This document shows positions 37,284 to 52,631 of a stretch of DNA of 64,000 bases, one piece after another. Position 1 is the first letter of the stretch; the number at the start of each line of letters is the position of its first letter. The stretch covers positions 399,461 to 463,460 of the forward strand of contig JAZDNT010000003.1 in the NCBI GenBank assembly GCA_043799405.1, given 5' to 3'. This DNA is from Candidatus Kerfeldbacteria bacterium (GTDB taxonomy: Bacteria > Patescibacteriota > Patescibacteriia > SBBC01). The notes under the pieces were generated by a model. It was given only the letters and a program-made list of their open reading frames with translations, was not told the origin of the DNA and did not search any database. A program made the position numbers and the translations under genes.

Positions 37284-37376
37284 ACACCTAAAATATCATA
37301 ACAATAGTAAGCCCTCAATGTCGTACATGGTCGGGGTGATCCCACCCATCGGCGGGACGACCTTCCCGCTCCACAG

Positions 37377-37551
37377 TCGGGGTACCGAGATTCGAACTCG
37401 GGACCTTCCCGCTCCAGTCGGGGTGACTGGACTTGAACCAGCGACCTCTTGGTCCCAAACCAAGCGCTCTAGCCAGCTGAGCTACACCCCGACTGGAGCG
37501 GGACGCGCGGACTTTACCCCGCCGGATGGCGGGGAGCTGCGCTATACCCCG
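37377..37551 (-). pseudogene. tRNA-Pro-like shell U2, split by the intact tRNA-Pro
   Basis: The 5' half is CGGGGTA TA GCGC [30-nt D-loop containing the hairpin CCCCGCC ATCC GGCGGGG] GCGC G TCCCG CTCCAGT. The 3' half is CTGGAG CGGGA AGGTC CCGAG TTCGAAT CTCGG TACCCCG A. The acceptor (7/7), anticodon stem and T arm are intact, but there is no anticodon loop and no G18G19. Confidence 0.6.
37418..37491 (-). tRNA. tRNA-Pro (anticodon TGG), no encoded CCA
   Basis: The minus strand reads CGGGGTG TA GCTC AGCTGGCTA GAGC G CTTGG TTTGGGA CCAAG AGGTC GCTGG TTCAAGT CCAGT CACCCCG A. All four stems are Watson-Crick, and C1:G72 with A73 is typical of bacterial tRNA-Pro. Confidence 0.9.
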
Positions 37552-37634
37552 ACTGTGGTGCGGGACGCGCATCTTTTTCTGCGCCAATCCCCGTCATGCC
37601 GACTCTACCAAGTTCTGCCCCAGCCGACAAGCGA

Positions 37635-37943
37635 TTATATGAGCGCGACGGTAACAAGGGCCGTTACCGTTATAAGCGCAAGCCACCCGATCGTCATCAC
37701 AACCGCAGTAATCGCCTCCCGTTTCTGTCCGTTCATGAAAAGGACAGCCGGGTAGCCGAACACAAGGCTTCCGACGACCGCGGCCGATACACAAAAAAGC
37801 AGCAGGAACGCGGTCGCGGCGAGAACCGTCGTCATCTGGCCGAACAGGCGTTCGCCATTTCGCATGATCGTTGCGACGACTGCGACGTACGCCGCGACGC
37901 CGAGCGCGTTCAAAAGGGTCCTTGATACAACCGATTTTTGCAT
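37635..37943 (-). CDS. Small three-TM membrane protein
   Basis: The start is chosen at MQKSVVSRTLLNALGVAAYVAVV. The protein is hydrophobic and lies downstream of the TSP3-repeat protein gene. Confidence 0.55.
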   Translation of the reverse strand: MQKSVVSRTLLNALGVAAYVAVVATIMRNGERLFGQMTTVLAATAFLLLFCVSAAVVGSLVFGYPAVLFMNGQKREAITAVVMTIGWLALITVTALVTVALI

Positions 37944-37975
37944 ATCGATGATTCGATTATAGCTATAGAGTAGAC

Positions 37976-39301
37976 TTACGGCGCGACGAACGTCGCATCC
38001 GCCGATGTAGTGCACTTCGGGTTCGGTGCGGTCGAGCAGCCGCGTATCGCGTAGTGGTACGTCGTTCCGGATGTTACGGTAAACGAAATCGCGTGGCTCT
38101 TCGTGAACGCGAAGTCGCTCCGATGGCTTCCGTACGCCGTGGTTGGTCCCCAGTTGACGATCCCGTCTGCCGATACGTCAGTCGACCAGCTGACCGTCGC
38201 CTGTCCGCCGCTAAACGTTACCGTTGTGCCGGAGATGACCGGCGCGGTCGAATTCTTCATGCGTGCCCAGCGTGCAGACTGTTCGTCAGTCGCGGCACCA
38301 GGACCTAATGGGTTCGACTTCTGATCAACCTCCGTCTTATCACTAACGCCGTCGCCATCCGTGTCCTTATAGAGCGGCGACGTTTCATACGCGTAGAATT
38401 CATCACCGTCTTTTAATCCATCACCGTCAGTGTCTGCTTTATCCGTTTTCGTACCAATCAGAAGCTCAACGCGGTTCACGAGCCCGTCCTTATCAGTATC
38501 GTTCGACTGGTCTTTCAGCACTGCGGGAGTATTTTCCGAATCCGGCCAGTTCTTCGGGAAGATGTACACGGTGAACTGGATATCGTTCCGGACGCCCATA
38601 GTGTAGCCATCGTCGCACGTGTACTGCGCTCCATAGACCTTGGGGTGCGCGAGCGACTTGTAGTAGTTAATGTCGCACTCACCCGGTTCCGTTGAGATCT
38701 TCTGCACGATTGTCTGGTCCTCCGGATCGACGTTGCGGAACGTGAATGTTAACGGTACTGCAGGGTCAAAGACACCGAGACGCTGCGCGTAGAACCTTCC
38801 GGTGATCATCGCGTTCCTGTTCGTGCAGTCGCCGCTGTAGAGGCCGAGCGGCACGGTCGTTACCGCGTCCGGCGTGTACGATAGATAGACCGCGGCTGCC
38901 GAGCACCACCAGTTCGTCATAAGATACATCGGGCCTAATGGAGCATCCGCAAGGAATTCCTCCCTGGTGATCATGGTCGGTTTCGACGCGCCCGATGCGG
39001 CGTTACCGGGATTCACATCGCCGTAGTTATACAGGTCGAGCTGCGGACCCTGTTGTTCGACCGTTTTCAACACCTTGTGATTATCGTCAGAAAGGTACTT
39101 AAAGTAGTTCACGATCGAGCTCTGCTTCGTCGCCTTGACCCGTTTCGCCTTCTGGGTCACCTTTATCTGCTGGCGGTGCTTTACGGTCATTCCAGAAATA
39201 CGGATCTTCGTTGCTGCGTCTGCGGCGAATCCTGCGCAGAGAAACACCAGCAACGTCGCGATAATAAAACTCGGACGGAAATGCGTTCGTAGAATTTTCA
39301 T
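37976..39301 (-). CDS. Secreted protein with thrombospondin type-3-like Ca-binding repeats and a C-terminal FN3/PAP-N-like domain
   Basis: Signal-like N-terminus (FIIATLLVFLCAGFAADA). Three D-rich repeats: DTDKDGLVNRVE, DTDGDGLKDGDE and DTDGDGVSDKTE. The C-terminal ISGTTVTFSGGQATVSWSTDVSADGIVNWGPTTAYG is an FN3-like beta sandwich. Confidence 0.7.
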   Translation of the reverse strand: MKILRTHFRPSFIIATLLVFLCAGFAADAATKIRISGMTVKHRQQIKVTQKAKRVKATKQSSIVNYFKYLSDDNHKVLKTVEQQGPQLDLYNYGDVNPGNAASGASKPTMITREEFLADAPLGPMYLMTNWWCSAAAVYLSYTPDAVTTVPLGLYSGDCTNRNAMITGRFYAQRLGVFDPAVPLTFTFRNVDPEDQTIVQKISTEPGECDINYYKSLAHPKVYGAQYTCDDGYTMGVRNDIQFTVYIFPKNWPDSENTPAVLKDQSNDTDKDGLVNRVELLIGTKTDKADTDGDGLKDGDEFYAYETSPLYKDTDGDGVSDKTEVDQKSNPLGPGAATDEQSARWARMKNSTAPVISGTTVTFSGGQATVSWSTDVSADGIVNWGPTTAYGSHRSDFAFTKSHAISFTVTSGTTYHYAIRGCSTAPNPKCTTSADATFVAP

Positions 39302-39395
39302 ACGTAATTCATTAGCGGATAAATGCACAATTGGTGCGACTCTATCCTAACGCAAAAACGTCGTGTACGCCAATCGATGCATCATCATGGATCGC

Positions 39396-39736
39396 TGGTG
39401 CCGCGGATCAGAACCCCGTAACGCGAGGTTACTCCCCGCTTGGTGCCTGGGGTCAGAATCGAACTGACGACGCCTGCCTCTTCAGGGCAGCGCTCTACCA
39501 TTGAGCTACCCAGGCACCAAGCGGGGACTAAATGTTCACTCGCTTGAGATTATTCCTATCAATCGAACGGTCCTAGTATACGCCTCGCGTACGGGGCAGG
39601 TCGAACTGACAGAGTTTACCCCGAGCTTGCCTCGTGGACAGGCTCTTTCCCGCCACCTTAAATCCGAATCTTCAACGAAGGCGGGATCCCGCAGTAGGCG
39701 GGACAGGGCTGCGCTCTACTACTGAGCTACCGCGGC
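39396..39736 (-). pseudogene. tRNA-Phe-like shell interrupted by a 56-nt anticodon-loop insert and a T-loop insert that contains the intact tRNA-Phe
   Basis: The sequence is GCCGCGG TA GCTC AGTAGTA GAGC G CAGCC CTG [56 nt, 39703->39648] AAGA GCCTG ... GTCAG TTCGA [insert including tRNA-Phe] TT CTGAT CCGCGGC A CCA. The acceptor is 7/7. The CTGAAGA and TTCGATT loops are restored when the inserts are removed. The D-loop lacks GG, and the anticodon stem has a C-C mismatch. Confidence 0.55.
39441..39515 (-). tRNA. tRNA-Phe (anticodon GAA), CCA encoded
   Basis: The minus strand reads GCCTGGG TA GCTC AATGGTA GAGC G CTGCC CTGAAGA GGCAG GCGTC GTCAG TTCGATT CTGAC CCCAGGC A CCA. The cloverleaf is canonical. 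Confidence 0.9.
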
Positions 39737-39797
39737 ACCAAGAGATTTCATATTAAAAAACTACGCGCCGAAAGAATACCACAGCGATTCTTCCGAA

Positions 39798-40307
39798 TCA
39801 AGCGTGGGAAAAGATCTCGAGCGTCTTCTTCACCTCCTCGGGCACGCCGAGGATGCAGTCGTGCTGATCGACAGTTGTGGCGTCGACCCAGGCGAACCCG
39901 TCGAACTCATCTTCTGGGTAGACGACGTCGCCCGAGTTTGCCCGGCATGCGAACTTCGTGCAGACGACCGGCGTGCCGTCGGGCCGGCGGAAAACGACGC
40001 TGTCGATGTAATGGAAATCGAACACGTCGAGTCCGCTCTCCTCTTTTGCCTCCCGCGTCAGCATTTGTTCAACGAGGTGCTCCCAGTCGACGACATCGCC
40101 GTTCATGCGCGTCGGCGGAGTACCCGTCATATCCTTGTGCTCGAGCTTACCGCCGACCGGCGCGTACTTTCCCGGATGTGCGATCTCGTGCTTTGCGCGC
40201 TGCAGCAGCAGGCACTTCCCGTCCCGGTACACGATGGCTGTCGCAACGAAGTAGAACAGCTTTCCGGGCTTCGCCTTATCGAGCATGATCGGAGGAACTG
40301 GAATCAT
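39798..40307 (-). CDS. NUDIX hydrolase
   Basis: GGKLE...REAKEESGLD is a Nudix box (REx2EExGU) with an unusually long insertion between the G and RE parts. Confidence 0.7.
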   Translation of the reverse strand: MIPVPPIMLDKAKPGKLFYFVATAIVYRDGKCLLLQRAKHEIAHPGKYAPVGGKLEHKDMTGTPPTRMNGDVVDWEHLVEQMLTREAKEESGLDVFDFHYIDSVVFRRPDGTPVVCTKFACRANSGDVVYPEDEFDGFAWVDATTVDQHDCILGVPEEVKKTLEIFSHA

Positions 40308-40480
40308 ATATCTCCTATTAATCCGTCGCGACCGAAGCGGCGAGGATCAACGAAGGGAAAGTCGCCGACGCGCCAACGCGCTGTGGCGACGGCGCGAGTG
40401 GTATCGCCTGCCCGCCGTACAAAGGACCTTTGTACTTTGGCAGGCGGGGACGAGGAAACTGTAGGTGTCCTCGCCGAACA

Positions 40481-42436
40481 TCATAGGATCTGGTACGTAC
40501 CTTCCTGGTACGCCCATGAAGCGCCGGGACCTGACGAGAACCAGACGCTCGAGAGCCCGGACTCATAGGTGATGATCGCATTGTTCTCAAGGTACAGCTT
40601 CTGAGCTGTAACCTCCTTCATTTCCCCGTTCTGGCTTACTTTCGCGACGCCCTTCGGCGCATAGACGACGGCGGCTGCGTTCGGATTAATGCTCGGCTTC
40701 GAGAAATTGTTGCCGATGTCGAAGGCGGCGACGGTCGGATCGAGGCTTGCGCTCATCGCGATCCCCATAATGAACGTTCCCGCAGTCGAGTTATGCAGGA
40801 ACATGGAATCGTTCTGTGCTATGATACGCCCGCTCGTCACTTTCGTACTCTCATCTTCCGGATTGTCGGCAATTATAACCCCGCTCTTGGATCCGTACGC
40901 GTCCGAGAGCGCAAGATTCGCACCATTGATCAGGGTGATATTCCCTTTGACCCAGACTGCCCCGGCAAGCGTTACGGTGTTAGAGATCGTTACGTCTCCA
41001 ATGTACTTTCTCGATCCGATGCTGCCGCCGGTAATGTTGCACGGATCCGGGCTGCCGCCGCACGGGATCGGTTCTCCGGCATCCTCTGCCGCCTGTTCCC
41101 ACACTGCGATCTGCTGGTCGGAAATTGGGAACACGACCGGCTCGGGATCGGTGCTACCAGGAACCATATCGATGTCAATACAGTATAGGGTGTTATCACC
41201 ATTGTCGCATTGTTCCGTACCGCCATTTGCATTAACATTACCGCTCGTGACGTTCCGGTAGTACGCCTTTTTTCCTATGCTGGCTTTTGTCATGGTATAT
41301 GCGCGCGCATCGCCGCCGATCGTTTCTATTTCTAACGTCGGTTGAACGCCTCCCATCCATACCTGAAACGCTACATCGCACGCCGGAGAAGAGCAGAGTT
41401 CCGCGACCGATGCGAGCGGGTTGCCGGTCATTGCCGTATTATTAGCATATGCCGTATCGGTCGTTGACCTGACCATTGAAAAGTAATTGCTGCCGTTTGC
41501 TCCGCTTACTTGTAAGACCAGCCAGTATCTCACTCCGGAAGAGAGGAGGGTCTGTGGAGTAAATGCGAAATCTTTATAAGCATCCTGCCATCCTGGGTCG
41601 GTGATTAGCGGAAGTGATGACGCGTTAATAGGTATCTGCGCTCCTGAAACCATCATTCCTGGTATACCACTGCCGTTATCATAGTAGATGGAAAGAGTGG
41701 GGTTCGCGGGGGCAGAGCTTGTACGCGCCATCTTCAAGCTCACCTTCGTCACCTTATCGACGGTCGTCGGTTTGAAACTCTGAACAACGTACCGAGTGGA
41801 GGTTGATCCGCGTACATCGAAGGTTGTGTAGGAAGCGGCAGGGTCCGTCTCGGCTTCGATTACGGAATCGCTAATTGACAGGATCGCGTCCCCCGAAATT
41901 TCAGTACCGCTGCCGCTCCCAGTCGCGATACTGATAGGCCCGGCAACGTACACGTTCCCGGGAGTACCGCCTGCGCCGAGGATTTTTGCACCGTTGTTGA
42001 ACACGATGCCGCCGGTTCCTGACTGAACACCGTAGACGAACGAGGCGTGTTCGCTGTTAGTAGAAAGCCGTACCTGTATCTGTTTTGAAAGTGACTGACC
42101 CCTAAACGTCGTTGTTCCTGTTGCTGTTATGATCCTATTGATGCTGTCCCAGCTGACAGAGAATTTTCCCTGACCGAATGACGTATCGGTCTCCCCAGAG
42201 TAGTTCGATGGGTTACCCTGGCAATCCGATGTGTTCATCGGGTTGTTCAGGCACCACACCGCTTTCTCTATTCCCGCCTCGGCGATCTGGATAGTATTCT
42301 GCTCACTGGTGCGTTTTCCGCTCGCCGATGTGTTGGTCTGGGTATAATCAAAGATTGCGATCGTGATGATGAGCACGACGCTCGTGAAGATGAGCACAAA
42401 TGCGAGGCTGTTACCGCGGTAACGTTCTTTATTCAT
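40481..42436 (-). CDS. Large pilus-associated protein (PilX-like N-terminus, minor pilin or tip candidate)
   Basis: 651 aa. N-terminal RGNSLAFVLIFTSVVLIITIAIF hydrophobic helix without Glu+5, then a G/S/T-rich beta-rich region. ATGA overlap with the upstream pseudopilin gene. Confidence 0.6.
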   Translation of the reverse strand: MNKERYRGNSLAFVLIFTSVVLIITIAIFDYTQTNTSASGKRTSEQNTIQIAEAGIEKAVWCLNNPMNTSDCQGNPSNYSGETDTSFGQGKFSVSWDSINRIITATGTTTFRGQSLSKQIQVRLSTNSEHASFVYGVQSGTGGIVFNNGAKILGAGGTPGNVYVAGPISIATGSGSGTEISGDAILSISDSVIEAETDPAASYTTFDVRGSTSTRYVVQSFKPTTVDKVTKVSLKMARTSSAPANPTLSIYYDNGSGIPGMMVSGAQIPINASSLPLITDPGWQDAYKDFAFTPQTLLSSGVRYWLVLQVSGANGSNYFSMVRSTTDTAYANNTAMTGNPLASVAELCSSPACDVAFQVWMGGVQPTLEIETIGGDARAYTMTKASIGKKAYYRNVTSGNVNANGGTEQCDNGDNTLYCIDIDMVPGSTDPEPVVFPISDQQIAVWEQAAEDAGEPIPCGGSPDPCNITGGSIGSRKYIGDVTISNTVTLAGAVWVKGNITLINGANLALSDAYGSKSGVIIADNPEDESTKVTSGRIIAQNDSMFLHNSTAGTFIMGIAMSASLDPTVAAFDIGNNFSKPSINPNAAAVVYAPKGVAKVSQNGEMKEVTAQKLYLENNAIITYESGLSSVWFSSGPGASWAYQEGTYQIL

Positions 42437-42993
42437 GGTTGTTTATAGTTGTTTAGGTGAGCATTAAGGATCGAGTATTGGGTGTAGGTTGAACCAACGA
42501 GTGCGTGCTGGGTCGCGAGCGTAATCGTCACTGCAGAACGGAGCGCTACCGTTGGTGAATTATACCTGAAATACACCTCTTTCACGCGATCAGCGACCGA
42601 CGTTACGCCGGCTGTTCGTATGCTGTCATCGTGTGGGTCGAGCACGTACTTGAGCTCAGAACCGTCAACATACAGTGCGCCGTAGTCGACTTTGTCCGAA
42701 GAGATGCTGTCAGCGGTTAATTTTGTTGGGAGCGTAAACACCAGCACGGTATCGCTCGTCGTATGCGTCGTACCGTCGAAATCGTGGCTTGATTCGACCG
42801 TTTTCGCCTGCCGCAGGGTATCGTTCAGCGTCGTAAGGATCCTGCTCGCGCTTAAATCCACTTCGATGCGTATCTGCTCGCTGTTCATGAACGTTCCGGC
42901 AACGAGGTAAACGTTGTAGACAATTATGCCGACGACCGCGATCGTGAACATCGCGACGAGCATTTCGGCAAGGGTAACGCCGCGCCGGTTCAT
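42433..42993 (-). CDS. Type IV pilin-like protein (prepilin-type N-terminal domain)
   Basis: MNRRG|VTLAEMLVAMFTIAVVGIIV has Gly at -1 and Glu at +5 followed by a hydrophobic helix. ATGA overlaps on both sides. Confidence 0.75.
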   Translation of the reverse strand: MNRRGVTLAEMLVAMFTIAVVGIIVYNVYLVAGTFMNSEQIRIEVDLSASRILTTLNDTLRQAKTVESSHDFDGTTHTTSDTVLVFTLPTKLTADSISSDKVDYGALYVDGSELKYVLDPHDDSIRTAGVTSVADRVKEVYFRYNSPTVALRSAVTITLATQHALVGSTYTQYSILNAHLNNYKQP

Positions 42994-44126
42994 AGGCCGA
43001 GCCCGCTCTGACCGATGAGCGACGAAGCAGAATAGGTTTTCGTCGCTCCGTTTGACTGTTGCCACGTTATCGTCACTGTTGCCTGCTTCATGGTCGTGCT
43101 ACCTGCATCAGGGTACGGCTCGATCACGACGTAGCCATTGTCGTTGAATACCGTCGGCGTGCTGTCCGGAAGGTCGTTAAGGCCGAGGCGGATCCACGCC
43201 GCCGGCATTGTCGGGGTCACGGGCGTATCGAAGTTCCACGTTTTTGTTTCCGTCGTGACTGTCTGTATATCGTCAACCTCGGCGTGTACGCCGTTCCACC
43301 CGACGAGTGCTGCTGCGCCGCTCGTCAACGGACTTGACGCATCAGTCGCGGTCGCGACAGTATTGCTGTTTATCTTTACCGTAATTGTAACTGGCGTGGG
43401 CGTATCGGAAACAACTAGTTCCAATGTGTACCACTCGTTCTTTGCAATAGTCGCATTTGCCGAAGCCAACCTCGACGACACTCCGTTAACAAGCTTCTCA
43501 AGGTAAACGTTCTCTTTGCCCGGAGCCGTGGGAACCGTATCGTAGTCGGTCTGTATACCACCGATTGTATACTCACCGATCCTCAAGCGGTATAGTGTTC
43601 CTGCATACGAAGCGCGCGCGACGTAGCCGATTGACCAACCGATGTTCGGATCATTGCTCGAAACGCTGTCGCTTACTACTTTCCACTTAGCAATCAGCGC
43701 GACGTTGCCATAAGTCTCCTCCGGAAACTTCAGAAGTCCAGAGGGTGTGCCTGAAAATCCCGTTGATTTTGCGAGCATAAGAACGTTCGGGACAGTATGG
43801 CTGCTGCTATCGTTATTGTCGACGACAACGCTCCACGATCCGGCATTGTAGAGCACGTTCCGTAACGGACAGTTCGTAACAGGTGTACAGCTCGTCTGCG
43901 TCGGAAGGTTCTCAAATCCCGCCCTCCGAAGTGCATTGATCTCTTCGTCCGCTAATACTGCCGCCTGTGAACGGAACGCGGTACTGCGGTTTACCCCCCG
44001 GACACTCGCCATCGATACCATAAGGACCGATAGTAGTAGGACGACTGCGAGCGACAGCAATGCCTCAAGAAGCGTAAAACCACACTGTCTCGGAGATGGG
44101 TGTCTTTTTCGTTTTATTCTTCGCAT
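42990..44126 (-). CDS. Type IV pilin-like protein (prepilin-type N-terminal domain), large
   Basis: ...RQCG|FTLLEALLSLAVVLLLSVL is the canonical prepilin peptidase site G/FTLLE. The protein is 378 aa. Confidence 0.75.
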   Translation of the reverse strand: MRRIKRKRHPSPRQCGFTLLEALLSLAVVLLLSVLMVSMASVRGVNRSTAFRSQAAVLADEEINALRRAGFENLPTQTSCTPVTNCPLRNVLYNAGSWSVVVDNNDSSSHTVPNVLMLAKSTGFSGTPSGLLKFPEETYGNVALIAKWKVVSDSVSSNDPNIGWSIGYVARASYAGTLYRLRIGEYTIGGIQTDYDTVPTAPGKENVYLEKLVNGVSSRLASANATIAKNEWYTLELVVSDTPTPVTITVKINSNTVATATDASSPLTSGAAALVGWNGVHAEVDDIQTVTTETKTWNFDTPVTPTMPAAWIRLGLNDLPDSTPTVFNDNGYVVIEPYPDAGSTTMKQATVTITWQQSNGATKTYSASSLIGQSGLGL

Positions 44127-44255: not shown

Positions 44256-44996
44256 ATGAGAAACGGAAAAAAGATCATCGCCGTGCTTCCAGCGTACAAT
44301 GCAGAGAAGACCTTATCGTTGACGCTCAATGACATTCCAGAGGATTGGATCGATGAGATCATTCTCGTCGATGACGCGAGCACTGATGGCACCGCTGCGC
44401 TCGCGCGAAGCCTCGGTATCACCACGATCGTGCACCAGAAAAACAGGGGTTATGGCAGGAACCAGAAAACATGCTACCGTGCTGCCCTTGAACGCGGGGC
44501 CGACATCGTCATTATGGTGCATCCCGATCACCAGTACGATCCAACGCTCGTCCCACAGCTCCTCGGCCCGATCATAGATGGAAGCGCTGATGCCGTATTC
44601 GGTTCACGAATGCTCGTTCATGGCGGAGCGCTTAAAGGGGGTATGCCGGGCTGGAAGTACGCTGCCAACGTCATGCTCACTGCAATTGAAAACAGCGTTC
44701 TTGGTCTCCGTCTGAGCGAATACCATTCCGGCTTCCGCGCATATAGCCGCCGCGTCCTTGAATCAGTACGGTACAATGACAACTCCGATGGTTTTGTCTT
44801 TGACACCGAGATCATCGTCCAGTTGAAGCTACATGGATATAAAATCAAAGAGGTCCCCATACCGACACGGTACTTTAAAGACGCATCATCAGTCGGCCTT
44901 CACGGAAGCCTCGTCTATGGTACGAACATCCTCCGCGTTATGGGGCAGTATATCCTGCACAGGTTGAAGCTCCGTCGTTATACAAAATTCTTGTAG
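44256..44996 (+). CDS. GT2 polyprenyl-phosphate glycosyltransferase (DPM1-like)
   Basis: IIAVLPAYNAEKTL, ILVDDASTDGT and VMVHPDHQYDP motifs are seen. The start is at MRNGKK, and the track N-terminal extension is rejected. Confidence 0.8.
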   Translation: MRNGKKIIAVLPAYNAEKTLSLTLNDIPEDWIDEIILVDDASTDGTAALARSLGITTIVHQKNRGYGRNQKTCYRAALERGADIVIMVHPDHQYDPTLVPQLLGPIIDGSADAVFGSRMLVHGGALKGGMPGWKYAANVMLTAIENSVLGLRLSEYHSGFRAYSRRVLESVRYNDNSDGFVFDTEIIVQLKLHGYKIKEVPIPTRYFKDASSVGLHGSLVYGTNILRVMGQYILHRLKLRRYTKFL

Positions 44997-44997
44997 T

Positions 44998-46485
44998 ATG
45001 AGGCGGGTCTACCTAATCGTGATCGTTGCTATCGCGGTCGGCATGGGACTGCGGATCGCCGCAGGAGGAACGAGGTTGCTGTGGAACGACGAGGCGGAAA
45101 CAACAATCAATAGTCTGCAGATACTCGACCACGGTTACCCTTCGAGCACGTACAAGGGGAAAGCGCTCTATGAGAACGCGGTCTACATACCCTCGGATGA
45201 TCCGAAGTACGCGTACGAATCGACAAACTACTATGGAACAAAGTTCGAACGCAACAAGGGCTGGCTGACGTACTACTACCAGGCTCCGTTCTTGAAACTG
45301 TTCGGTTTTTCGACGACCAGTGCGCGGTTACCATTCGTGCTGTTGTCCGGCGTAACGATCCTCCTCATTTTCGTGCTCGGCAGAAAACTATTCACCCCGA
45401 TGGCTGGCGCAATTGCTGCATCGCTCTATGCCATTAATTACTTCAGTATCTGGTACGAGATGCAGGCACGGTACTATTCGCTACTCGCAACACTTGCAGT
45501 TCTATTCCTATATTCGTCGTACCGGTCAGTGACCGACGGAAAGTGGCGGTCCTACCTGCTCGCTTTACTTTCGCTCGTGCTATTATTCTATACTCATCTT
45601 GTCGCATTCATCGCCGCTGCGCTCTTTTTCGTATGTGCACACACGTTCAAGGCCCGAACAATACGCTCGGTCGTCTCGACCAAAATCGCTGTAACTGTTG
45701 TCGGTATTGCGATTACTGTCATCCCCTGGATACTTGTTGTCCGGCTTTGGGAGGTGCCAAAGTCGTTCTCCGATTATTCGCTCGTTATGTATTGGTCAAT
45801 CATCCTCGTGCTGATAGGGGCCGGGATCGTAGCTGTGCTCCGTTATACACGGAACCTCATCGAGTATTCCTTCTCTCGTTTCACGGCGGTCAACTATCTC
45901 CTCCTCTACTGCGTAGTCGTCACCGTGCTCAAGCCGTTCCTCACGCCGGACGAATCGTTCGGTGCCCGTACCTTCATCGAACTTAATCCAATATTTTGTA
46001 TCCTTGGCGGTACGCTCGTCACGCAGTTCATGGACCGCCAGTGGCGCCAACGAGCGTCTGCGCTGTTATTTCCCTGTATCTTTCTGGTCTGCACATTCGC
46101 CTTCTTCAATGTCGGCATGACGCGCACTGCGCCGGTCAGCGTCGATGCGGGGTGGGTCAGATCATCGATCGCTGCACTCGACCGAATGAGTGTTTCTGCA
46201 ACGACGCCGGTCTTTGTTTCGTTCCAACAATTCCCGTTCATGCTCTACAGCGATTACAACATCGACCTCGTTTGGCCGATTCGAACGTCCTACCTGGATT
46301 CATATCCGAATCGACTCATTATGATCCTCGACCACCGCATGCTCTGGCCTAGGATCTTCTACCGCAGGGAACTATTGCCGATGCGTGAGTACAACTTCGC
46401 ACAACGACTCAAGCGATGTACGGCGCAACAGGTGATACCCGAAGTTGTACTCTATGATTGTCCGGCCTTGAGACCAGCAAACTAA
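44998..46485 (+). CDS. GT-C membrane glycosyltransferase (ArnT/PMT_2-like)
   Basis: 495 aa with about 11 TM segments. The first loop has LWNDEAETTINSL (DE motif after TM1), as in ArnT/PMT family enzymes. It starts 2 nt after the GT2 stop. Confidence 0.65.
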   Translation: MRRVYLIVIVAIAVGMGLRIAAGGTRLLWNDEAETTINSLQILDHGYPSSTYKGKALYENAVYIPSDDPKYAYESTNYYGTKFERNKGWLTYYYQAPFLKLFGFSTTSARLPFVLLSGVTILLIFVLGRKLFTPMAGAIAASLYAINYFSIWYEMQARYYSLLATLAVLFLYSSYRSVTDGKWRSYLLALLSLVLLFYTHLVAFIAAALFFVCAHTFKARTIRSVVSTKIAVTVVGIAITVIPWILVVRLWEVPKSFSDYSLVMYWSIILVLIGAGIVAVLRYTRNLIEYSFSRFTAVNYLLLYCVVVTVLKPFLTPDESFGARTFIELNPIFCILGGTLVTQFMDRQWRQRASALLFPCIFLVCTFAFFNVGMTRTAPVSVDAGWVRSSIAALDRMSVSATTPVFVSFQQFPFMLYSDYNIDLVWPIRTSYLDSYPNRLIMILDHRMLWPRIFYRRELLPMREYNFAQRLKRCTAQQVIPEVVLYDCPALRPAN

Positions 46486-46534
46486 TCGACGGAACGCTCA
46501 TGAGTACGGTATACTTCAGCAAGGATGACATAGT

Positions 46535-46762
46535 ATGAGACAGTATCGTAAAACAATTCGTACCGTTATTATTGCAGCCGCCTTCCTTCTCCTCGAGCCT
46601 AGGGAAACGCACGCCTACCTCGATCCGGGGAACGGCAGCTACTTCATCCAGATTGTCATTGCGGCGGCGCTCGGCGGGCTTGTCGCAATGAAGTCGTCGT
46701 TCTCGAAGATCAAGGGCCTTTTCACCAAACTCTTTTCGAGACGACAGAACACGAAAGATTAG
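46535..46762 (+). CDS. Small two-TM protein with a YLDPGNGS motif
   Basis: 75 aa: a signal-like helix, then AYLDPGNGSYFIQIVIAAALGGLV, then a basic tail. Confidence 0.5.
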   Translation: MRQYRKTIRTVIIAAAFLLLEPRETHAYLDPGNGSYFIQIVIAAALGGLVAMKSSFSKIKGLFTKLFSRRQNTKD

Positions 46763-46768
46763 GAGTGT

Positions 46769-48145
46769 ATGGGAAAGCTCCCGAGTTCATACCGTGATCC
46801 GAGCGGCTTCGTGTTTTCGCATGATGGCGCAATCTACCGGCAGGTAAACAGCTCATACCGCGAGCACTACGACCTCTTCATGCAGTCGGGGCTCTACCAC
46901 GAGTTGCAAAAGCGCGGACTGCTTGTATCACATACCGAGGTTGCGATCAGGAGCCCACAACCATCGACCTTGTATAAGATCCTGAAGCCGGAACGTATTC
47001 CTTTTGTCTCGTATCCGTATGAATGGTGCTTCAGTGAGCTCAAGGATGCAGCGCTCCTTACGCTCGAAATCCAAAAAACCGCGCTGCGATCCAGTATGTC
47101 ACTGAAAGATGCGAGCGCATTCAATGTACAGTTCATAGGTACGCGTCCGGTATTCATCGATACGCTCTCGTTCGAGCGGTACCGGGAAGGCAAGCCGTGG
47201 GTCGCTTACCGGCAGTTCTGCGAGCAGTTCCTCGGTCCGCTCGTGCTCATGAGCAAACGTGACGCAAGGCTCGGCCAGCTCCTGCGGGTATTCCCTGACG
47301 GGATCCCCGTAGATCTCGTAAGCACGCTCCTTCCGCTAAAAACATGGATGGCGCCGTCGCTTCTCGCCCACATCCACTTGCACGCAAAAAGCCAGCGTCG
47401 ATTCTCGACGACCGCCGCATCAACGCCGCACCGTTCCATTGATAAGCCGATCCTCGAACGACTCATCGCGACGCTCCAATCGACGGTTAAAGGCTTGTCA
47501 TGGGAACCGCAAAAAACGACGTGGACGAGTTACTATGAATTAACTAACTACACTGATAGAGGAATGGAGCATAAAAAGAAGGTCGTTGAGAGCTTCATGA
47601 ACAAGCTTTCACCGAAGACGGTCTGGGACCTCGGTGCGAACACCGGTACGTTCAGCGATATTGCGGCGTCAAAAAAAATATCGACGATCGCGTTCGACAA
47701 CGATATTTGTACGGTCGAGCTCCTGTTCCGCCGCTGCACGGAAAGAAAGGACGCGAATACCCTTCCGCTCATCCTCGACCTTACGAATCCAAGTCCGCCC
47801 GTTGGTTTTGCAAACAGAGAACGAATGACGCTCGAGGAGCGCGGGCCGGCTGATATGGTACTTGCATTAGCGCTCGTCCATCATCTCGCAATTGGAAAGA
47901 ACGTTCCGCTGAGCTCGCTTGCTTCGTATTTCTCGAGGATCGGAAAGTCCCTCATCATCGAATTCGTTCCGAAATCGGATTCGCAGGTGCAGGCCATGCT
48001 CTCGAACAGGGATGATATTTTTGACGACTACGACGAAGAATCGTTCAAGCGCGAATTCTCCCGTCATTTCACGATACGATCTTCCGAGCAGGTCGCTGAT
48101 TCCTCAAGGATCATCTACCTCATGGTCAGGAAACATACCGCATGA
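46769..48145 (+). CDS. SAM-dependent methyltransferase (large, C-terminal MTase domain)
   Basis: VWDLGANTGTFSDIAA (motif I) and DMVLALALVHHL are seen. The N-terminal ~270 aa is uncharacterised. Confidence 0.65.
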   Translation: MGKLPSSYRDPSGFVFSHDGAIYRQVNSSYREHYDLFMQSGLYHELQKRGLLVSHTEVAIRSPQPSTLYKILKPERIPFVSYPYEWCFSELKDAALLTLEIQKTALRSSMSLKDASAFNVQFIGTRPVFIDTLSFERYREGKPWVAYRQFCEQFLGPLVLMSKRDARLGQLLRVFPDGIPVDLVSTLLPLKTWMAPSLLAHIHLHAKSQRRFSTTAASTPHRSIDKPILERLIATLQSTVKGLSWEPQKTTWTSYYELTNYTDRGMEHKKKVVESFMNKLSPKTVWDLGANTGTFSDIAASKKISTIAFDNDICTVELLFRRCTERKDANTLPLILDLTNPSPPVGFANRERMTLEERGPADMVLALALVHHLAIGKNVPLSSLASYFSRIGKSLIIEFVPKSDSQVQAMLSNRDDIFDDYDEESFKREFSRHFTIRSSEQVADSSRIIYLMVRKHTA

Positions 48146-49677
48146 ACGTTCTTGTCCTCATCTATCCGTATCTGTTCGCCGTTTTTCCCGTGCTCTTCTT
48201 GTATTTCCACAATGTACAGCGGTACCCCGTACCGTTGAGCGAGGTTATTGTTCCACTCATCATCGTTGTGGTTGGTGTATTCGCTTTGCAGGCAGCAATC
48301 AGACGAGCCATAAAAAATCAAGATAAAACATCATTACTTATTTCTGTTTTTTGCCTGTTATTTTTCTCTTTTGGATCTGTTTCCGAGCTCTTCCATAGTT
48401 ACGATAGGTCATTATCGATCGCTTTTTTGGGACTGCTCTTTTTTTCGTTCTCGTATCTATTGCTGACAACAAAAAATGATCTATCGTATCTCAGCCGGAC
48501 AGCGGCATTCATAGGAATCATACTGGTCGTCCTCCAGCCTGCACTATATACCCTAAACGCGATCGGTGCGTACGGTTACGCTCCACGTAAGCTCAGTATC
48601 ACGGACGAAAACTCCACATCGGCATCAGAAAAACCGAATATTTTCTACATTATACTTGACGGATACGCCCGACAAGACATTCTCAAGAGTCTGTACGATT
48701 ACGACAATGAATTCTTCCTCTCGTCGCTTAAACAACGCGGATTTTTCATCGCAGAAAAGAGCAGGACGAATTACAACCAAACGCTTCAGTCAATCGCCTC
48801 ATCGTTGAACATGCACTATTTGACCGCGCTCGCACGTTCAAGCGACGATCCATATCGACATGAAGCGCCGCTCTATGAGGCGATCAGGAATAACGCCGTC
48901 TTCTCGTTTGTGAAAAAGCTTGGGTATACCACAATAGCCTACGGATCCGGACTCAACGGAACAACGTTCACGACGACAATTACGAATGCGGACATTTCGA
49001 TTGCACCGTCAAACGCGCTTACAGAGTTCCAAAATCTCCTGATCAACACAACGCCAATCCCGACGCTTTTGGAATCCGTCCATCTCGCGACCCAAACCGG
49101 ACTTTTCAGGAACAGGGTATCATATCCGCTTAAACATCTCGCTGACCACGCGGGAGATAGCGGTCCACAATTAATTTTTTCGCACATCATCTGTCCGCAT
49201 CCGCCCTTTGTCTTTGATGAAAACGGCAATCCTGTATACATGGAAAATTTTCCTTGCCTTGCTGACGGCAGCGTATGCGTTATCACTGATAAAGACCGAC
49301 AGATCTACTACACCGGTTACCGACAACAGGTAACGTTCATCAGTAATGCCATCCTTAAAGTCATCGACGATATACTACAGCTATCGTCAACGCCGCCGAT
49401 CATCATTCTACAATCCGATCATGGTCCCGGCATGCAGTGGATCATGAACGACGTTGGCGCGACCAATCTTCAGGAGCGCGTACCGAATTTTATCGCGCTC
49501 TATCTACCAGGCGAAAGCACAGTACGTCCATACGATACAATAACGCCGGTTAACATCTTCCGTCTTATCTTTAACCGATACTTCGGGACTTCGTACGAAA
49601 TGCTTGATGACCGAAGCTACTTTGCTACAGTTAAGCATCCGTACACTTTTATCGACGTGACCGACAAAATTCGATAA
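48142..49677 (+). CDS. Membrane-anchored alkaline-phosphatase-superfamily enzyme (sulfatase/LTA-synthase/phosphoethanolamine-transferase-like)
   Basis: Five N-terminal TM segments, then NIFYIILDGYARQD (metal/nucleophile region) and IILQSDHGP (SDHG motif). ATGA overlap with the upstream methyltransferase gene. Confidence 0.7.
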   Translation: MNVLVLIYPYLFAVFPVLFLYFHNVQRYPVPLSEVIVPLIIVVVGVFALQAAIRRAIKNQDKTSLLISVFCLLFFSFGSVSELFHSYDRSLSIAFLGLLFFSFSYLLLTTKNDLSYLSRTAAFIGIILVVLQPALYTLNAIGAYGYAPRKLSITDENSTSASEKPNIFYIILDGYARQDILKSLYDYDNEFFLSSLKQRGFFIAEKSRTNYNQTLQSIASSLNMHYLTALARSSDDPYRHEAPLYEAIRNNAVFSFVKKLGYTTIAYGSGLNGTTFTTTITNADISIAPSNALTEFQNLLINTTPIPTLLESVHLATQTGLFRNRVSYPLKHLADHAGDSGPQLIFSHIICPHPPFVFDENGNPVYMENFPCLADGSVCVITDKDRQIYYTGYRQQVTFISNAILKVIDDILQLSSTPPIIILQSDHGPGMQWIMNDVGATNLQERVPNFIALYLPGESTVRPYDTITPVNIFRLIFNRYFGTSYEMLDDRSYFATVKHPYTFIDVTDKIR

Positions 49678-49692
49678 TCGTTAGGACCAATG

Positions 49693-50145
49693 TTAATTGC
49701 GTATATCCCTGTTCCGTAGCGCGACCCCGCTTAGTACAAACAACAACGCGACGTACGTTACGATAAGCCACGGCATGGAAAGCCAGTCCCACCATCCATG
49801 AACCGTGAATCTTGATACAGGCCAGAGCAACGGTGTCAAAAGTTCCCGGTGTCCTGGGATATCGATGAGAATATGCACAGCCCACGGCCACGTCACCATA
49901 TACACGCGGCGAAAGTACAGCATCGCGAACAGTGTCACCGCAGCCCACACGATGAGACTGTGGGATATATCATAGAGCGGTAGGGAGAAGCGGATGCGCC
50001 CTTCTGTTACCAGCCAGAACGTCGTTGCAGGAAGCCAGATGAGGTCGGGTAGAATACCAAATAACACGAGCCACTTCCAGTGATGCGGCGTTTTTTTCGC
50101 GCTGGCTATCACATACGTGACAAGCCCATGTGCAAGGATATCCAT
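49693..50145 (-). CDS. Membrane-bound metal-dependent hydrolase (YdjM/DUF457-like)
   Basis: 150 aa. MDILAHGL N-terminus, conserved His residues (SHS, HILIDIPGH) and 4 TM segments. Confidence 0.55.
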   Translation of the reverse strand: MDILAHGLVTYVIASAKKTPHHWKWLVLFGILPDLIWLPATTFWLVTEGRIRFSLPLYDISHSLIVWAAVTLFAMLYFRRVYMVTWPWAVHILIDIPGHRELLTPLLWPVSRFTVHGWWDWLSMPWLIVTYVALLFVLSGVALRNRDIRN

Positions 50146-50278
50146 ACCGTCGTTACTGCCAGGTCCGGCTCTGCCGGAAACCTCTTAATACGACCTCGCC
50201 TGCCTTCGCCGTAGCGAAGCTCCGGCTTCGCGCAGGCAGGTCATTATCAGCTCCGCCTAGCACCAGAACGGGCATTAT

Positions 50279-50661
50279 TGGAAGACATGTGAGGGATCGA
50301 ACCTCCGACCTCGTCATTACCTGCCCGCCGTACGGAGTTATCTTATCAAACGTCCTTTTGGTGGGCGATCCAGGACTCGAACCTGGGACCTCGTCATTAT
50401 CAGTGACGCGCTCTAACCATCTGAGCTAATCGCCCACCAAAAGGAAACTTGATATAAATTCTATTATTTATCCAGTTGTAACGTTCTGCAAACACTCCGT
50501 ACTCCGGTCACCGCTTTCTGCGGGATCCCGCCAGAGGCGGTGACAGGCGGGTCAGTGACCCCGCACAACTCGCTATCGCTCGTTTGCGGGGCAGGCGCGC
50601 TTCCTTCATCTAACCACCTGCCTGCCCGCCACAGTGGAGCGACGGCGGGAGCTACATGCCC
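50279..50661 (-). pseudogene. tRNA-Ile-like shell whose anticodon loop is interrupted by an insert that contains the intact tRNA-Ile
   Basis: The 5' part is GGGCATG TA GCTC [29-nt hairpin insert] AGGTGGTTA GATG ... GGTCA CTGA | CCCGCC.... The 3' part is ...GGCGGGCAGG | TAA TGACG AGGTC GGAGG TTCGATC CCTCA CATGTCT T CCA. The acceptor pairs 7/7 with two G-T wobbles. CTGATAA is restored when the insert is removed. The D stem is broken. Confidence 0.5.
50359..50435 (-). tRNA. tRNA-Ile (anticodon GAT), CCA encoded
   Basis: The minus strand reads GGGCGAT TA GCTC AGATGGTTA GAGC G CGTCA CTGATAA TGACG AGGTC CCAGG TTCGAGT CCTGG ATCGCCC A CCA. The cloverleaf is canonical. Confidence 0.9.
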
Positions 50662-52579: not shown

Positions 52580-52584
52580 TAACA

Positions 52585-52616: not shown

Positions 52617-52631
52617 AATTCGCGCGCTCAG

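Follow-up and report, generated by a model that had tools for sequence, protein, structure and literature searches.

The stretch of DNA analysed here (the window, 64,000 nt) comes from a genome of Kerfeldbacteria, in the candidate phyla radiation (CPR), and three tRNAs of this genome, those for Pro, Phe and Ile, are covered. At each of these loci, the working tRNA is closed by stems and nested within the split relics of older copies of the same tRNA, which gives a Russian-doll layout. All three tRNAs have perfect leader/trailer inverted repeats at their flanks, here called clamps, and each is enclosed by one or two tRNA-like shells. Folding of the three loci compared with shuffled sequences gave z-scores of -10.5, -8.1 and -7.8, and the predicted fold of the Pro locus is a nested cloverleaf with three levels. 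We found no published account of tRNA-in-tRNA nests in the literature.

The Pro locus (37328-37593, on the minus strand as are the other two) has at its centre a functional tRNA-Pro(UGG) (37418..37491) that was detected by ARAGORN (tgg) and Rfam (tRNA, 68.9 bits) and does not encode CCA. It is bracketed by the clamp strands UCCCGCUCCAGU (37492..37503) and ACUGGAGCGGGA (37407..37418), the first A of the latter being the discriminator base. With the acceptor stem included, these form a 19-nt inverted repeat (37407-37425 and 37485-37503) that is 100% complementary. Around this lies a second shell, U2. Its 5′ half, assigned from fold and sequence (CGGGGTA TA GCGC AG...GCGCG, 37504..37551), has the hairpin CCCCGCC AUCC GGCGGGG (37517-37534) inserted in the D loop, and the relative L132 has a homologous hairpin and tail (CCCCGCC ATAC GGCGGGG TAAACTCC). 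The U2 3′ half (37377..37406) consists of variable loop AGGUC, T arm CCGAG UUCGAAU CUCGG, acceptor strand UACCCCG and discriminator A; real tRNAs aside, just one other hairpin in the window resembles a T arm, and it lies in coding DNA. U2 in turn sits inside an outermost shell, U1, where the strands of the closing stem, TCCCGCACCACAGT (37552..37565) and ACUGUGGAGCGGGA (37364..37377), occupy the expected place of the anticodon arm; the inverted repeat at this level is 21 nt long with 95% complementarity (37364-37384 and 37545-37565), and the junction of GCGCG with TCCCGCACCA is also present in L121. The U1 5′ half (37566..37593; acceptor strand CGGGGAT, D arm and G26) matches the plain functional tRNA-Pro of the syntenic relative L122 at 22 of 27 positions, with the first 15 nt identical. 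In the U1 3′ half (37328..37363; AGGUC, a hairpin, then CACCCCG A CCA), the T arm is replaced by the hairpin GUCCCGCC GAU GGGUGGGAU (37339-37358), which has G.U pairs in the RNA sense; L077 has a similar hairpin at the T-arm position.

At the Phe locus (39396-39736), the functional tRNA-Phe(GAA) (39441..39515; ARAGORN, Rfam) is of a GCCUGGG type with an encoded CCA. Its clamp strands are UCCCCGCUUGGU (39516..39527) and ACCAAGCGGGGA (39433-39444), the latter seen in both the fold and the inverted repeat, which extends over 23 nt at 96% (39429-39451 and 39509-39531). The shell 5′ part (GCCGCGG...CAGCCCUG, 39704..39736) corresponds to positions 1-34 of a former resident tRNA-Phe and is identical to the functional tRNA-Phe of L122 at 32 of 33 positions, as against 28 of 33 for the inner tRNA-Phe of the window. 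The insert in its anticodon loop (39528..39703) contains the hairpins UCCCGCC UACU GCGGGA (39687-39703) and UCCCGCC...GGCGGGA (39648-39686). It also includes one strand of a distal stem, CCCCGUACGCGAGG, and AT-rich DNA in which a weak promoter-like site lies (39604-39575, 9/12 matches). This insert and the one upstream of tRNA-Phe in L122 have AGCGAGTGAAC in common. After the trailer comes the other distal stem strand, CCUCGCGUUACGGGG (region 39414..39444), followed by the shell 3′ part from T loop to CCA (UUCUGAUCCGCGGCACCA, 39396..39413), which is identical to the 3′ end of the L122 tRNA-Phe at 17 of 18 positions and forms a perfect 11-nt inverted repeat with the shell 5′ end. The same pairing of a GCCGCGG shell with a GCCTGGG inner tRNA is found in L131.

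The Ile locus (50192-50661) has a stem-closed cassette (50320..50551) inserted between anticodon positions 35 and 36 of its shell. The cassette runs from CCCGCC...AGUACGGAG through a weak promoter-like site (50492-50463, 9/12 matches), clamp leader CCUUUUGGU (50436-50444), the functional tRNA-Ile(GAU) (50359-50435; ARAGORN (gat), Rfam) and clamp trailer ACCAAAAGG (50354-50362) to CUCCGUAC GGCGGG CAGG, and its inverted repeat spans 26 nt at 88% (50344-50369 and 50429-50454). A homologous cassette with a compensatory change in the clamp occupies the same site in L160. The shell 5′ part (50552..50661) comprises GGGCAUG UA GCUC, two hairpins, and the anticodon stem and loop to CUGA; the first hairpin, CCGCC...GGCGG in the D loop (50626-50648), is also in L156, and the second, CCCCGC...GCGGGG at position 26/27 (50559-50591), is also in L160. 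The 3′ part (50279..50319) resumes with UAA UGACG AGGUC, T arm GGAGG UUCGAUC CCUC and acceptor CAUGUCU, followed by U and CCA. CAUGUCU pairs with GGGCAUG by means of two G.U pairs. In L160, CATGCCC is kept on the 3′ side and the 5′ side is mutated, so that opposite strands of this stem have changed in the two genomes. Beyond the shell is an older partial tRNA-Ile copy (50192..50250; CUGAUAAUGAC, a hairpin insert, then CGAGGUC), which is homologous to the 3′ part of the shell in L161 and, in L159, to a 3′ partial copy that follows tRNA-Ile on its downstream side.

A preliminary description of this DNA had proposed that clamps continue each acceptor stem through CCA in helices of 19, 19 and 16 bp. 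The perfect repeats are there at all three tRNAs, but two details needed correction. The Ile clamp is 10 bp and its helix 17 bp, with a second tier of 6 bp (TATCAA/TTGATA) past a 4x4 internal loop. Pairing through CCA occurs only in Phe and Ile, since the Pro gene has no encoded CCA and its trailer is A-CUGGAGCGGGA. All the DNA retrieved contained 167 tRNAs. Leader and trailer pair over at most 4 bp in 162 of them and over 0-2 bp in 161; pairing of at least 10 bp was confined to the three tRNAs of the window and to two close relatives. Within the clade, 9 of 16 tRNAs have at least 8 extra bp, their clamp sequences differ with complementarity kept, and orthologous clamps have compensatory changes. 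More than 4 extra bp was seen in none of about 150 tRNAs of other bacteria outside the clade. Because the clamps covary in the clade and are absent from these other tRNAs, they look like a selected, lineage-specific structure. As a way of building tRNA genes they are not universal in the lineage, for tRNA-Pro and tRNA-Phe of L122 are plain and clampless. In silico, the inner acceptor stem was predicted to pair with a probability of 1.0 when the clamps were intact and of 0.34-0.73 once they were broken or deleted, and the role of the clamps is most plausibly that of a leader-trailer helix for folding and processing.

The recurrence of hairpins of the type (T)CCCGC(C)…(G)GCGGG(A), also pointed out earlier, was borne out as a clustering in the three tRNA loci. 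CCCGC-N2-30-GCGGG occurs 8 times in the window compared with 2.7 +/- 1.7 in shuffles, 1 of 100 of which reaches 8. Six of the hits fall within the roughly 2% of the window taken up by the tRNA loci, and the other two are at 40411-40448 and 56336-56374. The hexamers alone have no window-wide enrichment, so the signal is one of clustering rather than abundance. Two CCGCC...GGCGG hairpins (54974-54988 and 56590-56604) are ordinary terminators. Hairpins lacking a payload occur only in shells and never in functional tRNAs, and the Phe and Ile inserts open with a common sequence, CCGCC...GGCGGGATCCCGC (family D20). A link to the 16S gene that had been drawn in the preliminary description was rejected: the single 822-nt 16S insert has the ends and core of a group I intron and lacks CCCGCC/GGCGGG closure, and the CCCGCC found at 57664 belongs to the normal conserved sequence of 16S.

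The loci of relatives identify the shells. L122 has the syntenic order NUDIX, tRNA-Phe, TSP3 protein, tRNA-Pro, and both of its tRNAs are functional counterparts of the outermost shells of the window. Judged by these matches, the shells are former resident tRNA genes. Elsewhere at the same loci, other tRNA variants are the functional gene or the shell, and the site of insertion is the D loop, the anticodon loop or the T loop. U1-type shells surround one, different tRNA-Pro in L121 and L130, and U2-type shells surround tRNA-Pro(UGG) and tRNA-Pro(GGG) in L131 and L132. The complete tRNA-Ile of L161 has as its sole interruption a clamp-flanked tRNA-Ile of the window's inner type, which lies in the D loop; L160 has the anticodon-loop cassette of the window; L159 has an intact tRNA-Ile gene and only a 3′ partial copy; and the functional tRNA-Ile gene of L156 is yet another variant. 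Decay also varies, with the 3′ half lost from the L121 shell and the T arm disrupted in that of L130. As read from these comparisons, the layout turns over quickly between relatives. Sharing of the nest does not track the ranking of relatives by protein identity: L160, at 79%, shares it and L159, at 85%, does not, a distribution that needs losses or recombination between lineages. The same loci were recovered in independent NCBI, ENA, JGI and Logan assemblies, and outside the clade there are nests around tRNA-Val, tRNA-Thr and tRNA-Gly in Saccharibacteria, Paceibacterales and Roizmanbacteria.

We lean, with some reserve, toward the idea that each locus is a pile of successive gene replacements in which the halves of the old gene stay as relics. 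A tRNA copy with the same anticodon, bracketed by an inverted repeat, would enter the D, anticodon or T loop of a functional resident gene, or replace the whole anticodon arm. The inserted copy would assume the function, with the halves of the old gene left flanking it as a shell, and repeated rounds would leave the genes ordered by age, from the newest at the centre to the oldest relic on the outside. The shells may later decay and gain small GC hairpins of the family described above, which could be payload-free or collapsed versions of stem-closed inserts. Insertion probably proceeded by recombination or repair using tRNA homology, with the shell halves as homology arms. Against this reading stand the distribution across relatives, the absence of visible target-site duplications and the lack of a recombinase, reverse transcriptase or homing endonuclease in or beside the nests of the window. 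So does the mixed origin of the inner copies. In L131, tRNA-Lys lies in the T loop of a shell identical to it at 27 of 27 positions, and two compensatory pairs are what separates the members of the Phe pair; both suggest local duplication. For the Pro levels, with differences at many positions, a different gene or lineage is indicated as the donor. Closing stems and clamps would be kept by selection at the RNA level, where both may hold the inner tRNA in the correct register amid several near-identical acceptor strands. We infer that the nest is co-transcribed and that its leader-trailer helix, much like that of an rRNA precursor, could be cut by a double-strand-specific nuclease before RNase P and 3′ trimming act. 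The preliminary description had proposed an RNase III-like cut of this kind and expected that leader pairing would hinder RNase P; no RNA-processing gene lies within the window.

The preliminary description had also raised a small structured element that invades stable-RNA genes, and this comes close to the pattern in relatives, where residents are split by stem-closed inserts carrying a replacement tRNA. A stricter form of this idea, which we consider possible but clearly less probable than a pile of replacements, is a dedicated, non-autonomous mobile element. It would be a small hairpin whose ends, (T)CCCGC(C)/(G)GCGGG(A), are conserved; it would target loops in tRNA genes or tRNA-like DNA and be moved in trans by some enzyme. 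Some copies with tRNA cargo would enter essential tRNA genes, bring the replacement and so could not be lost ("destroy and rescue"), and payload-free copies would persist only in dead shells, to which such hairpins are indeed confined. One end motif closes inserts in the Pro, Phe and Ile tRNAs of the window and recurs in relatives found without bias, namely in the Phe insert of L122 and in the Lys shell of L131. In the window, the inserts for Phe and Ile have their start sequence in common, and the position of inserts in cloverleaf loops suggests structure recognition. The motif is also in Val, Thr, Gly, Arg and fMet shells of distant CPR classes, although conservation of GCGGG(A/G) in distant phyla was partly forced by the search pattern. 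However, CCCGC...GCGGG hairpins are nearly absent from the window outside the tRNA loci, no target-site duplications were seen at the nests, and the window has no candidate transposase, nor is there a recombinase, reverse transcriptase or homing endonuclease in or beside its nests. Viral contigs that we scanned did not yield such cassettes, and the identical or near-identical shell and inner pairs (L131 Lys, Phe) are better suited to local copying.

A further possibility, which we hold to be improbable, is that the whole nested precursor is selected as an adaptive RNA device in which anticodon-less shells are functional scaffolds, either protecting or chaperoning the inner tRNA or serving to recruit the CCA enzyme, RNase P or RNase Z. 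In the Pro nest, the anticodon arm is swapped exactly (positions 27-43) for the stem bearing tRNA-Pro and the U2 cloverleaf is flawless, a precision that could also mean selection on the shell as an RNA structure and that counts against a stack of replacements. In addition, two compensatory pairs in the T stem distinguish the U2-type shell of the window from that of L132, and Peribacteria and other CPR lineages have stand-alone tRNA-like genes without an anticodon arm. Against this, L122 has plain functional orthologues with no shell, truncation and mutation of the shell differ in each relative, and the outer shells of the window are incomplete, U1 being without a T arm and the Phe shell without most of its 3′ half.

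It is very doubtful that the inserts are introns, cut out by a helix-specific endonuclease and ligase or by self-splicing, with the shells also maturing into tRNAs. The Ile insert does lie exactly at 35/36, a site favoured by group I introns in tRNAs of Patescibacteria (PMC13011429), and its removal would rejoin CUGA to UAA and give a GAU anticodon loop. But the Ile shell contains three further inserts, an anticodon arm is entirely missing from the Pro shells and the Phe shell lacks positions ~35-55, so that for Pro and Phe splicing is already contradicted. A search of the three loci against Rfam (E <= 10) gave no group I core and no other family, the junctions are continuous helices without bulge-helix-bulge geometry, and the rRNA is bacterial. 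Finally, chance or chimeric joining of tRNA repeats, conceivable in a metagenome-assembled genome, can be set aside given perfect 19-nt inverted repeats at three loci, folding z-scores down to -10.5, homologous nests in independent assemblies from four repositories, and independent samples (L156/L157 and L158/L159) with the same layout and identical gene coordinates and tRNA positions.

Several known systems resemble the nests in part. In tmRNA, two-piece forms included, and in the bacterial Y RNA-like YrlA, a long helix stands where a tRNA-like module would have its anticodon arm. The shells have this topology: the acceptor stem and the T arm are present, the D arm may or may not be, and the long helix leads on to another domain. 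By contrast, tmRNA and YrlA are single conserved functional RNAs, whereas in the nests a bona fide tRNA takes the place of that domain and, among relatives, the shell is seen to decay. Integrative elements also leave tRNA fragments in bacteria, where att sites are duplicated, and an archaeal example carries a partial tRNA gene (PMC3293823). As with these, the tRNA is restored by the newcomer, a fragment of the displaced resident is left and close relatives rapidly become heterogeneous. Such elements span kilobases, carry a recombinase gene and leave a one-sided fragment; the nest inserts are 100-330 nt, encode no protein, are closed by an inverted repeat and have nested fragments to either side.

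Archaea and red algae have multi-intron, split and permuted tRNAs whose junctions are of the bulge-helix-bulge kind (PMC4033280, PMC3978253, PMC3218864). These and the nests have several interruption positions, including the D, anticodon and T regions, and GC-rich complementary flanks that unite the halves. Their pieces are spliced into one functional tRNA, whereas in the nests the interrupted gene is dead and the insert carries a complete replacement tRNA, in a bacterial host and without bulge-helix-bulge geometry. Patescibacteria, the same phylum, also have group I introns in their tRNAs (PMC13011429). These likewise insert in the anticodon loop, with Ile at their favoured 35/36, but the nest inserts have no detectable catalytic core, carry a tRNA and could not restore the interrupted tRNA by excision at the Pro and Phe loci.

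There are also parallels with rRNA. Intervening sequences in rRNA are cut by RNase III, and there, as here, a stem closes inserts in stable-RNA genes. In bacterial rRNA precursors, RNase III cuts the leader-trailer helices (PMC11404451, PMC10250234). Here too, the flanks of a stable RNA pair into a long helix around the mature molecule and covary between relatives; by analogy, RNase III could cleave the clamps. Unlike the rRNA helices, the clamp helix encloses a single tRNA and is coaxial with its acceptor stem, taking in the discriminator base and CCA.

The three tRNA genes of the window, tRNA-Pro(tgg) (37418-37491), tRNA-Phe(gaa) (39441-39515), and tRNA-Ile(gat) (50359-50435), were called by both ARAGORN and Rfam on the minus strand, and each lies inside the split remains of another tRNA-like sequence. 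We refer to these remains as a shell and to the inner tRNA with its shell or shells as a nest. The Pro locus (37593 to 37328 in the RNA sense) is a three-level Russian doll. Its outermost shell, U1, has an acceptor strand (CGGGGAU), a D arm, a GC hairpin replacing the T arm, and the end CACCCCGACCA; a 14-bp stem stands where its anticodon arm should be and bears the second shell (U2), a perfect cloverleaf whose D loop holds an additional hairpin. The anticodon arm of U2 is replaced by a 12-bp stem bearing the real tRNA-Pro. The predicted fold of the 296 nt around this nest (37320-37615) has an energy of –176 kcal/mol versus –120 ± 5 for shuffled sequences (z = –10.5). At the Phe and Ile loci the outer tRNA is Phe-like or Ile-like, respectively, and has kept the pairing between its acceptor strands. 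This outer gene is broken in the anticodon loop by an imperfect hairpin of 230–330 nt that carries an intact tRNA at its tip (z = –8.1 for the Phe locus and –7.8 for the Ile locus, against shuffles). Overall, the inserts are 100–330 nt long and have no ORF, and fragments of the 5' and 3' halves bracket the intact gene in nested order. T-arm-like hairpins in the window were confined to the three tRNAs and U2, besides one in coding DNA. The surrounding protein genes encode glycosyltransferases, pilin-like proteins, a NUDIX hydrolase, an ABC transporter, and trehalase. RNA-processing enzyme genes, including those for a splicing endonuclease and an RNA ligase, were absent from the 64-kb window. 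Glycosyltransferase, methyltransferase, and polysaccharide-export genes are clustered over more than 20 kb (8380-31885), an ordinary arrangement for surface glycan synthesis. Three proteins of the window have 100% identity with proteins labelled Candidatus Kerfeldbacteria at NCBI, which puts the organism in the candidate phyla radiation (Patescibacteria).

The inner tRNAs are flanked by leader/trailer inverted repeats that prolong the acceptor stem, which we call clamps. An inverted-repeat search recovered them exactly where the preliminary description had placed them. Together with the acceptor strands they form repeats of 19 nt at Pro (37407-37425/37485-37503; 100% complementary), 23 nt at Phe (39429-39451/39509-39531; 96%), and 26 nt at Ile (50344-50369/50429-50454; 88%). 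Pairing through the CCA end, previously described for all three, applies to Phe and Ile and not to Pro because the Pro gene has no encoded CCA, and the Ile clamp, described as 9 bp, is 10 bp with a second tier of 6 bp. The continuous helices are 19, 19, and 17 bp, about the two turns enclosing a mature RNA that characterize a leader–trailer helix. The inner clamps of Phe and Ile each have weak promoter-like hexamers immediately upstream. In all DNA collected, leader/trailer pairing was 4 bp or less in 162 of 167 tRNAs (0–2 bp in 161), and pairing of at least 10 bp was confined to the three tRNAs of the window and two from close relatives. tRNA genes in general do not have such long leader/trailer helices. 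Within the clade, 9 of 16 tRNAs had at least 8 extra base pairs, with clamp sequences that differ yet remain complementary, and compensatory double changes were seen between orthologous clamps (the window versus locus L160 at –8/80; locus L156 versus L161 at –9/81). These comparisons argue that clamps are a feature separate from the shells and under selection.

In silico, the pairing probability of the inner tRNA-Pro acceptor stem was 1.0 with clamps and fell to 0.34–0.73 once the clamps were broken or deleted because three near-identical acceptor strands compete. From this drop we infer that the stems would act as folding insulators and as a leader–trailer helix comparable to that of rRNA precursors. 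RNase III cleavage, raised in the preliminary description, is plausible for predicted helices of 17–19 bp. A tRNA leader–trailer helix that includes the CCA end predicts an unusual order of maturation, in which a double-strand cut would come ahead of RNase P. The U1 hairpin and the Ile shell acceptor stem contain G.U pairs in the RNA sense, which would fit pairing at the transcript level.

To place the shells we compared the loci with relatives in other genomes and metagenomes. Relatives of the Pro and Phe loci were found with the TSP3-repeat protein encoded between them; a search of genome contigs with the NUDIX protein gave no relative. Locus L122 (67% protein identity; gene order NUDIX, tRNA-Phe, TSP3, tRNA-Pro) has a plain tRNA-Pro, CGGGGATTGGCGCAG..., whose first 15 nt are identical to U1. 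Its tRNA-Phe is nearly identical to both parts of the window Phe shell (32 of 33 positions in the 5' part, 17 of 18 in the 3' part), and the shell is closer to this gene than to the window's own inner tRNA-Phe. MAFFT placed the plain L122 tRNA against the inner tRNA and not the shell, so the shell comparisons were done pairwise. Ahead of the 'plain' tRNA-Phe of L122 (5665-5812) are an 11-nt repeat of the gene's 5' end (GCCGCGGTAGC) and a 130-nt GC-rich insert with GTCCCGCC GAGA CGGGAAG; this arrangement is a half-nest that lacks a 3' shell. Locus L121 (75%) has a one-level nest with the same junction as the window, between GCGCG and TCCCGCACCA, holding another intact tRNA-Pro and lacking the 3' shell half. 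A metagenome scan for this junction gave 19 matches, of which 16 were chance occurrences in GC-rich coding DNA and three were further nests. One of these (L130) has a U1-type shell, and the other two have U2-type shells surrounding tRNA-Pro(UGG) (L131) and tRNA-Pro(GGG) (L132), with a D-loop hairpin homologous to that of the window. L131 also has the Phe arrangement of the window, a GCCTGGG inner gene inside a GCCGCGG shell, and a tRNA-Lys placed in the T loop of a shell with which it is identical at 27 of 27 positions. The anticodon arm of this Lys shell is a TCCGCC CUU GGCGGA hairpin. Directly 3' of the nested tRNA cluster lies a gene with a SocA/Panacea antitoxin domain, both in L121 (4189-4704) and in L131 (~1526-1800; oriented coordinates; Pfam E = 4.5e-12). 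Panacea antitoxins partner, among others, with tRNA-attacking toxins.

Relatives of the Ile locus were found with the adjacent ABC transporter. The nearest homologue of the trehalase is only 52% identical, so this gene was useless as a synteny anchor. L160 (79%) has the window's cassette, a stem-closed insert carrying a tRNA, at the same position (35/36) with one compensatory clamp change, and the acceptor stem of its shell is mutated on the strand opposite to that in the window. In L161 (84%) a complete tRNA-Ile has its sole interruption in the D loop, where a tRNA-Ile of the same type as the inner gene of the window sits between clamp strands. In L159 (85%) the gene is intact and flanked by a clamp, and a 3' partial copy bears two hairpin inserts and is homologous to window fragment 50192-50250. 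In L156 (86%) the functional gene is another variant, surrounded by fragments of two others. This comparison shows that the same few variants (GGGCGGC, GGGCGCG, GGGCGAT, and GGGCATG) are functional in one genome and relics in another.

Nests with the same architecture were met by chance in other classes of the candidate phyla radiation during a pattern scan (GCGGGRAGGTC plus a T loop) of species-representative genomes (L063 ~6160-6340 and ~7490-7680; L070 ~2600-2960; L061 ~1740-1960; L004 ~420-620; L084 ~5555-5785). The scan was too loose and nests were sorted out by hand. Saccharibacteria had one tRNA-Thr nest and two tRNA-Val nests, the latter with a 12-bp closing stem (CCCGCCCTTTC/GAAAGGGCGGG) that Val nests of two classes have in common. 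A tRNA-Val nest in Paceibacterales has three to four levels; in sequence, the first of its shells is the tRNA-Val that is functional at the Saccharibacteria locus. In Roizmanbacteria the D loop of a shell holds an inserted tRNA-Gly. Most matches were tRNA-like units uncalled by ARAGORN, among them arrays in Bacteroidota. In these arrays (L001, L016, L020, L030 with nine copies, L119, and others), tRNA-Pro-like or tRNA-Ala-like units with the anticodon arm TCCCG CAGNNNTG CGGGA and an 8-nt loop stand in tandem and adjoin normal tRNA genes. Several lineages have tRNA copies in which a CCCCGCC-NNN-GGCGGGG hairpin forms the anticodon arm. In tRNA-like genes with a complete or partial cloverleaf (L003 ~5080-5190; L051 ~1140-1240; L010, L039, L043, L044, L077, L035, L008, and L085), the arm is a GC hairpin of 6–9 bp with a loop of 2–4 nt; some stand alone and some adjoin an intact tRNA, and ARAGORN missed nearly all, apparently calling one in L051. 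These genes may be nests that have collapsed, or an RNA class of their own.

Together, these comparisons show that the shells are former resident genes and indicate that the innermost copy is the newest and that insertion was into loops of the cloverleaf. Shell decay is lineage-specific, with loci turning over within approximately 15–30% protein divergence. The best-supported reading of these sequences is that a tRNA gene is serially replaced by a stem-closed copy inserted into the resident gene. Some inner copies look local and others foreign: the Lys copy of L131 has the same sequence as its shell, two compensatory acceptor pairs separate the members of the Phe pair, and the Pro levels differ throughout. 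No recombinase, reverse transcriptase, or nuclease was found in or beside the window nests.

A dedicated small mobile element is a rival that we keep alive. Terminal inverted repeats of the form (T)CCCGC(C)...(G)GCGGG(A) close inserts in the three loci and their relatives, as expected of a MITE- or REP-like element, and the Phe and Ile inserts begin alike. The hairpin form of this motif (CCCGC-N2-30-GCGGG) occurs eight times in the window versus 2.7 ± 1.7 times in shuffles. The bare hexamers have no window-wide enrichment, so that the signal is one of clustering: six of the eight matches fall in the three tRNA loci (~2% of the window). Such an element would also be expected to leave target-site duplications and many dispersed copies; no duplication was seen at the insert junctions of the window nests, and the 64 kb lack a dispersed population of copies. 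Two CCGCC...GGCGG hairpins (54974-54988 and 56590-56604) considered as copies are ordinary terminators with T runs behind them, and a 14-mer (GTACGGCGGGCAGG) that the Ile insert has in common with a hairpin at 40411-40448 is at chance level for 64 kb. The second rival, that the shell is a functional scaffold, is kept alive by the flawless cloverleaf of U2. A phage origin is unsupported because scans of viral contigs for clamp-plus-tRNA patterns gave nothing or ordinary phage tRNA arrays only. An assembly artefact is excluded by homologous nests in independent NCBI, ENA, JGI, and Logan assemblies.

Serial replacement might have a selfish cause. We consider it rather unlikely that the nests record a 'destroy-and-rescue' tRNA cassette, protein-free and stem-closed, that kills an essential tRNA gene by loop insertion and is indispensable because it carries the replacement. 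Recombination, with the shell halves on either side as homology arms, would carry such a cassette from one related cell to another, and acceptor stems would diversify because the levels of a nest must differ to fold. If this were true, an element that survives by taking the place of an essential gene that it destroys would form a new class among bacterial mobile elements and would give tRNA genes a new way to evolve across the candidate phyla radiation.

The phylum is known for odd stable-RNA genes, and the window also contains a bacterial 16S gene with a group I intron (57028-59337; ARAGORN and Rfam scan). The intron is a single 822-nt insert (58578 to 57757, minus strand) between GGGAU and UAGAUACCC in the 790 loop, with group I-type ends and an Rfam core. 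It is not closed by the motif, and the link first drawn between it and the tRNA inserts does not stand. Approximately 90 nt at its start are homologous to a long hairpin 104–188 nt downstream of the 16S 3' end (56840-56923), and approximately 68 nt at its end to DNA that precedes the 16S 5' end (~59632-59695; 32 nt at 97%). Two small hairpin-type repeats are therefore common to the intron and the rRNA flanks. The usual place of tRNA-Ile(GAU) is the 16S–23S spacer; here it stands downstream of the 16S gene, at a distance of 6.6 kb that includes protein-coding genes (50359-59337), and because the window has no 23S gene the rRNA operon is unlinked.

As a comparison with known systems, the Ile insertion site is the favored site of group I introns in Patescibacteria tRNAs (PMC13011429). 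However, an intron reading of the inserts is contradicted by Pro shells with no anticodon arm and a Phe shell lacking approximately 20 positions (about 35–55). Removing the insert would not restore a complete tRNA in either; in the Ile shell it would regain the anticodon loop, yet three other inserts remain. No Intron_gpI match was found at E ≤ 10 in 37000-40000 and 50050-50850 with the Rfam library that detects the 16S intron at 62.7 bits, and group I remnants are absent from the inserts. The junctions have no bulge-helix-bulge (a 4-bp helix with two 3-nt bulges) and instead have predicted uninterrupted helices of 12–14 bp. The shells resemble the tRNA fragments left by integrative elements, but integrase-mediated insertion is rejected by inserts with no ORF and by fragments of both tRNA halves around an intact gene. 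They also resemble the pieces of archaeal disrupted tRNA genes. On defining features, the nests appear to match neither of these nor the Patescibacteria tRNA introns, and the clamps would work like rRNA leader–trailer helices. A full-text literature search turned up no account of bacterial tRNA genes that sit inside relics of tRNAs. With complete tRNAs recursively nested in what is left of their predecessors, the nests would be a new addition to the types of disrupted tRNA gene, the first such in Bacteria. Loci of this kind confuse tRNA annotation, and shells and tRNA-like genes with no anticodon arm go unreported. The loci also supply orthogonal acceptor stems, and tRNA scaffolds bearing another RNA, that occur in nature, and the turnover of tRNA genes in this phylum can be read from them as from a fossil record.
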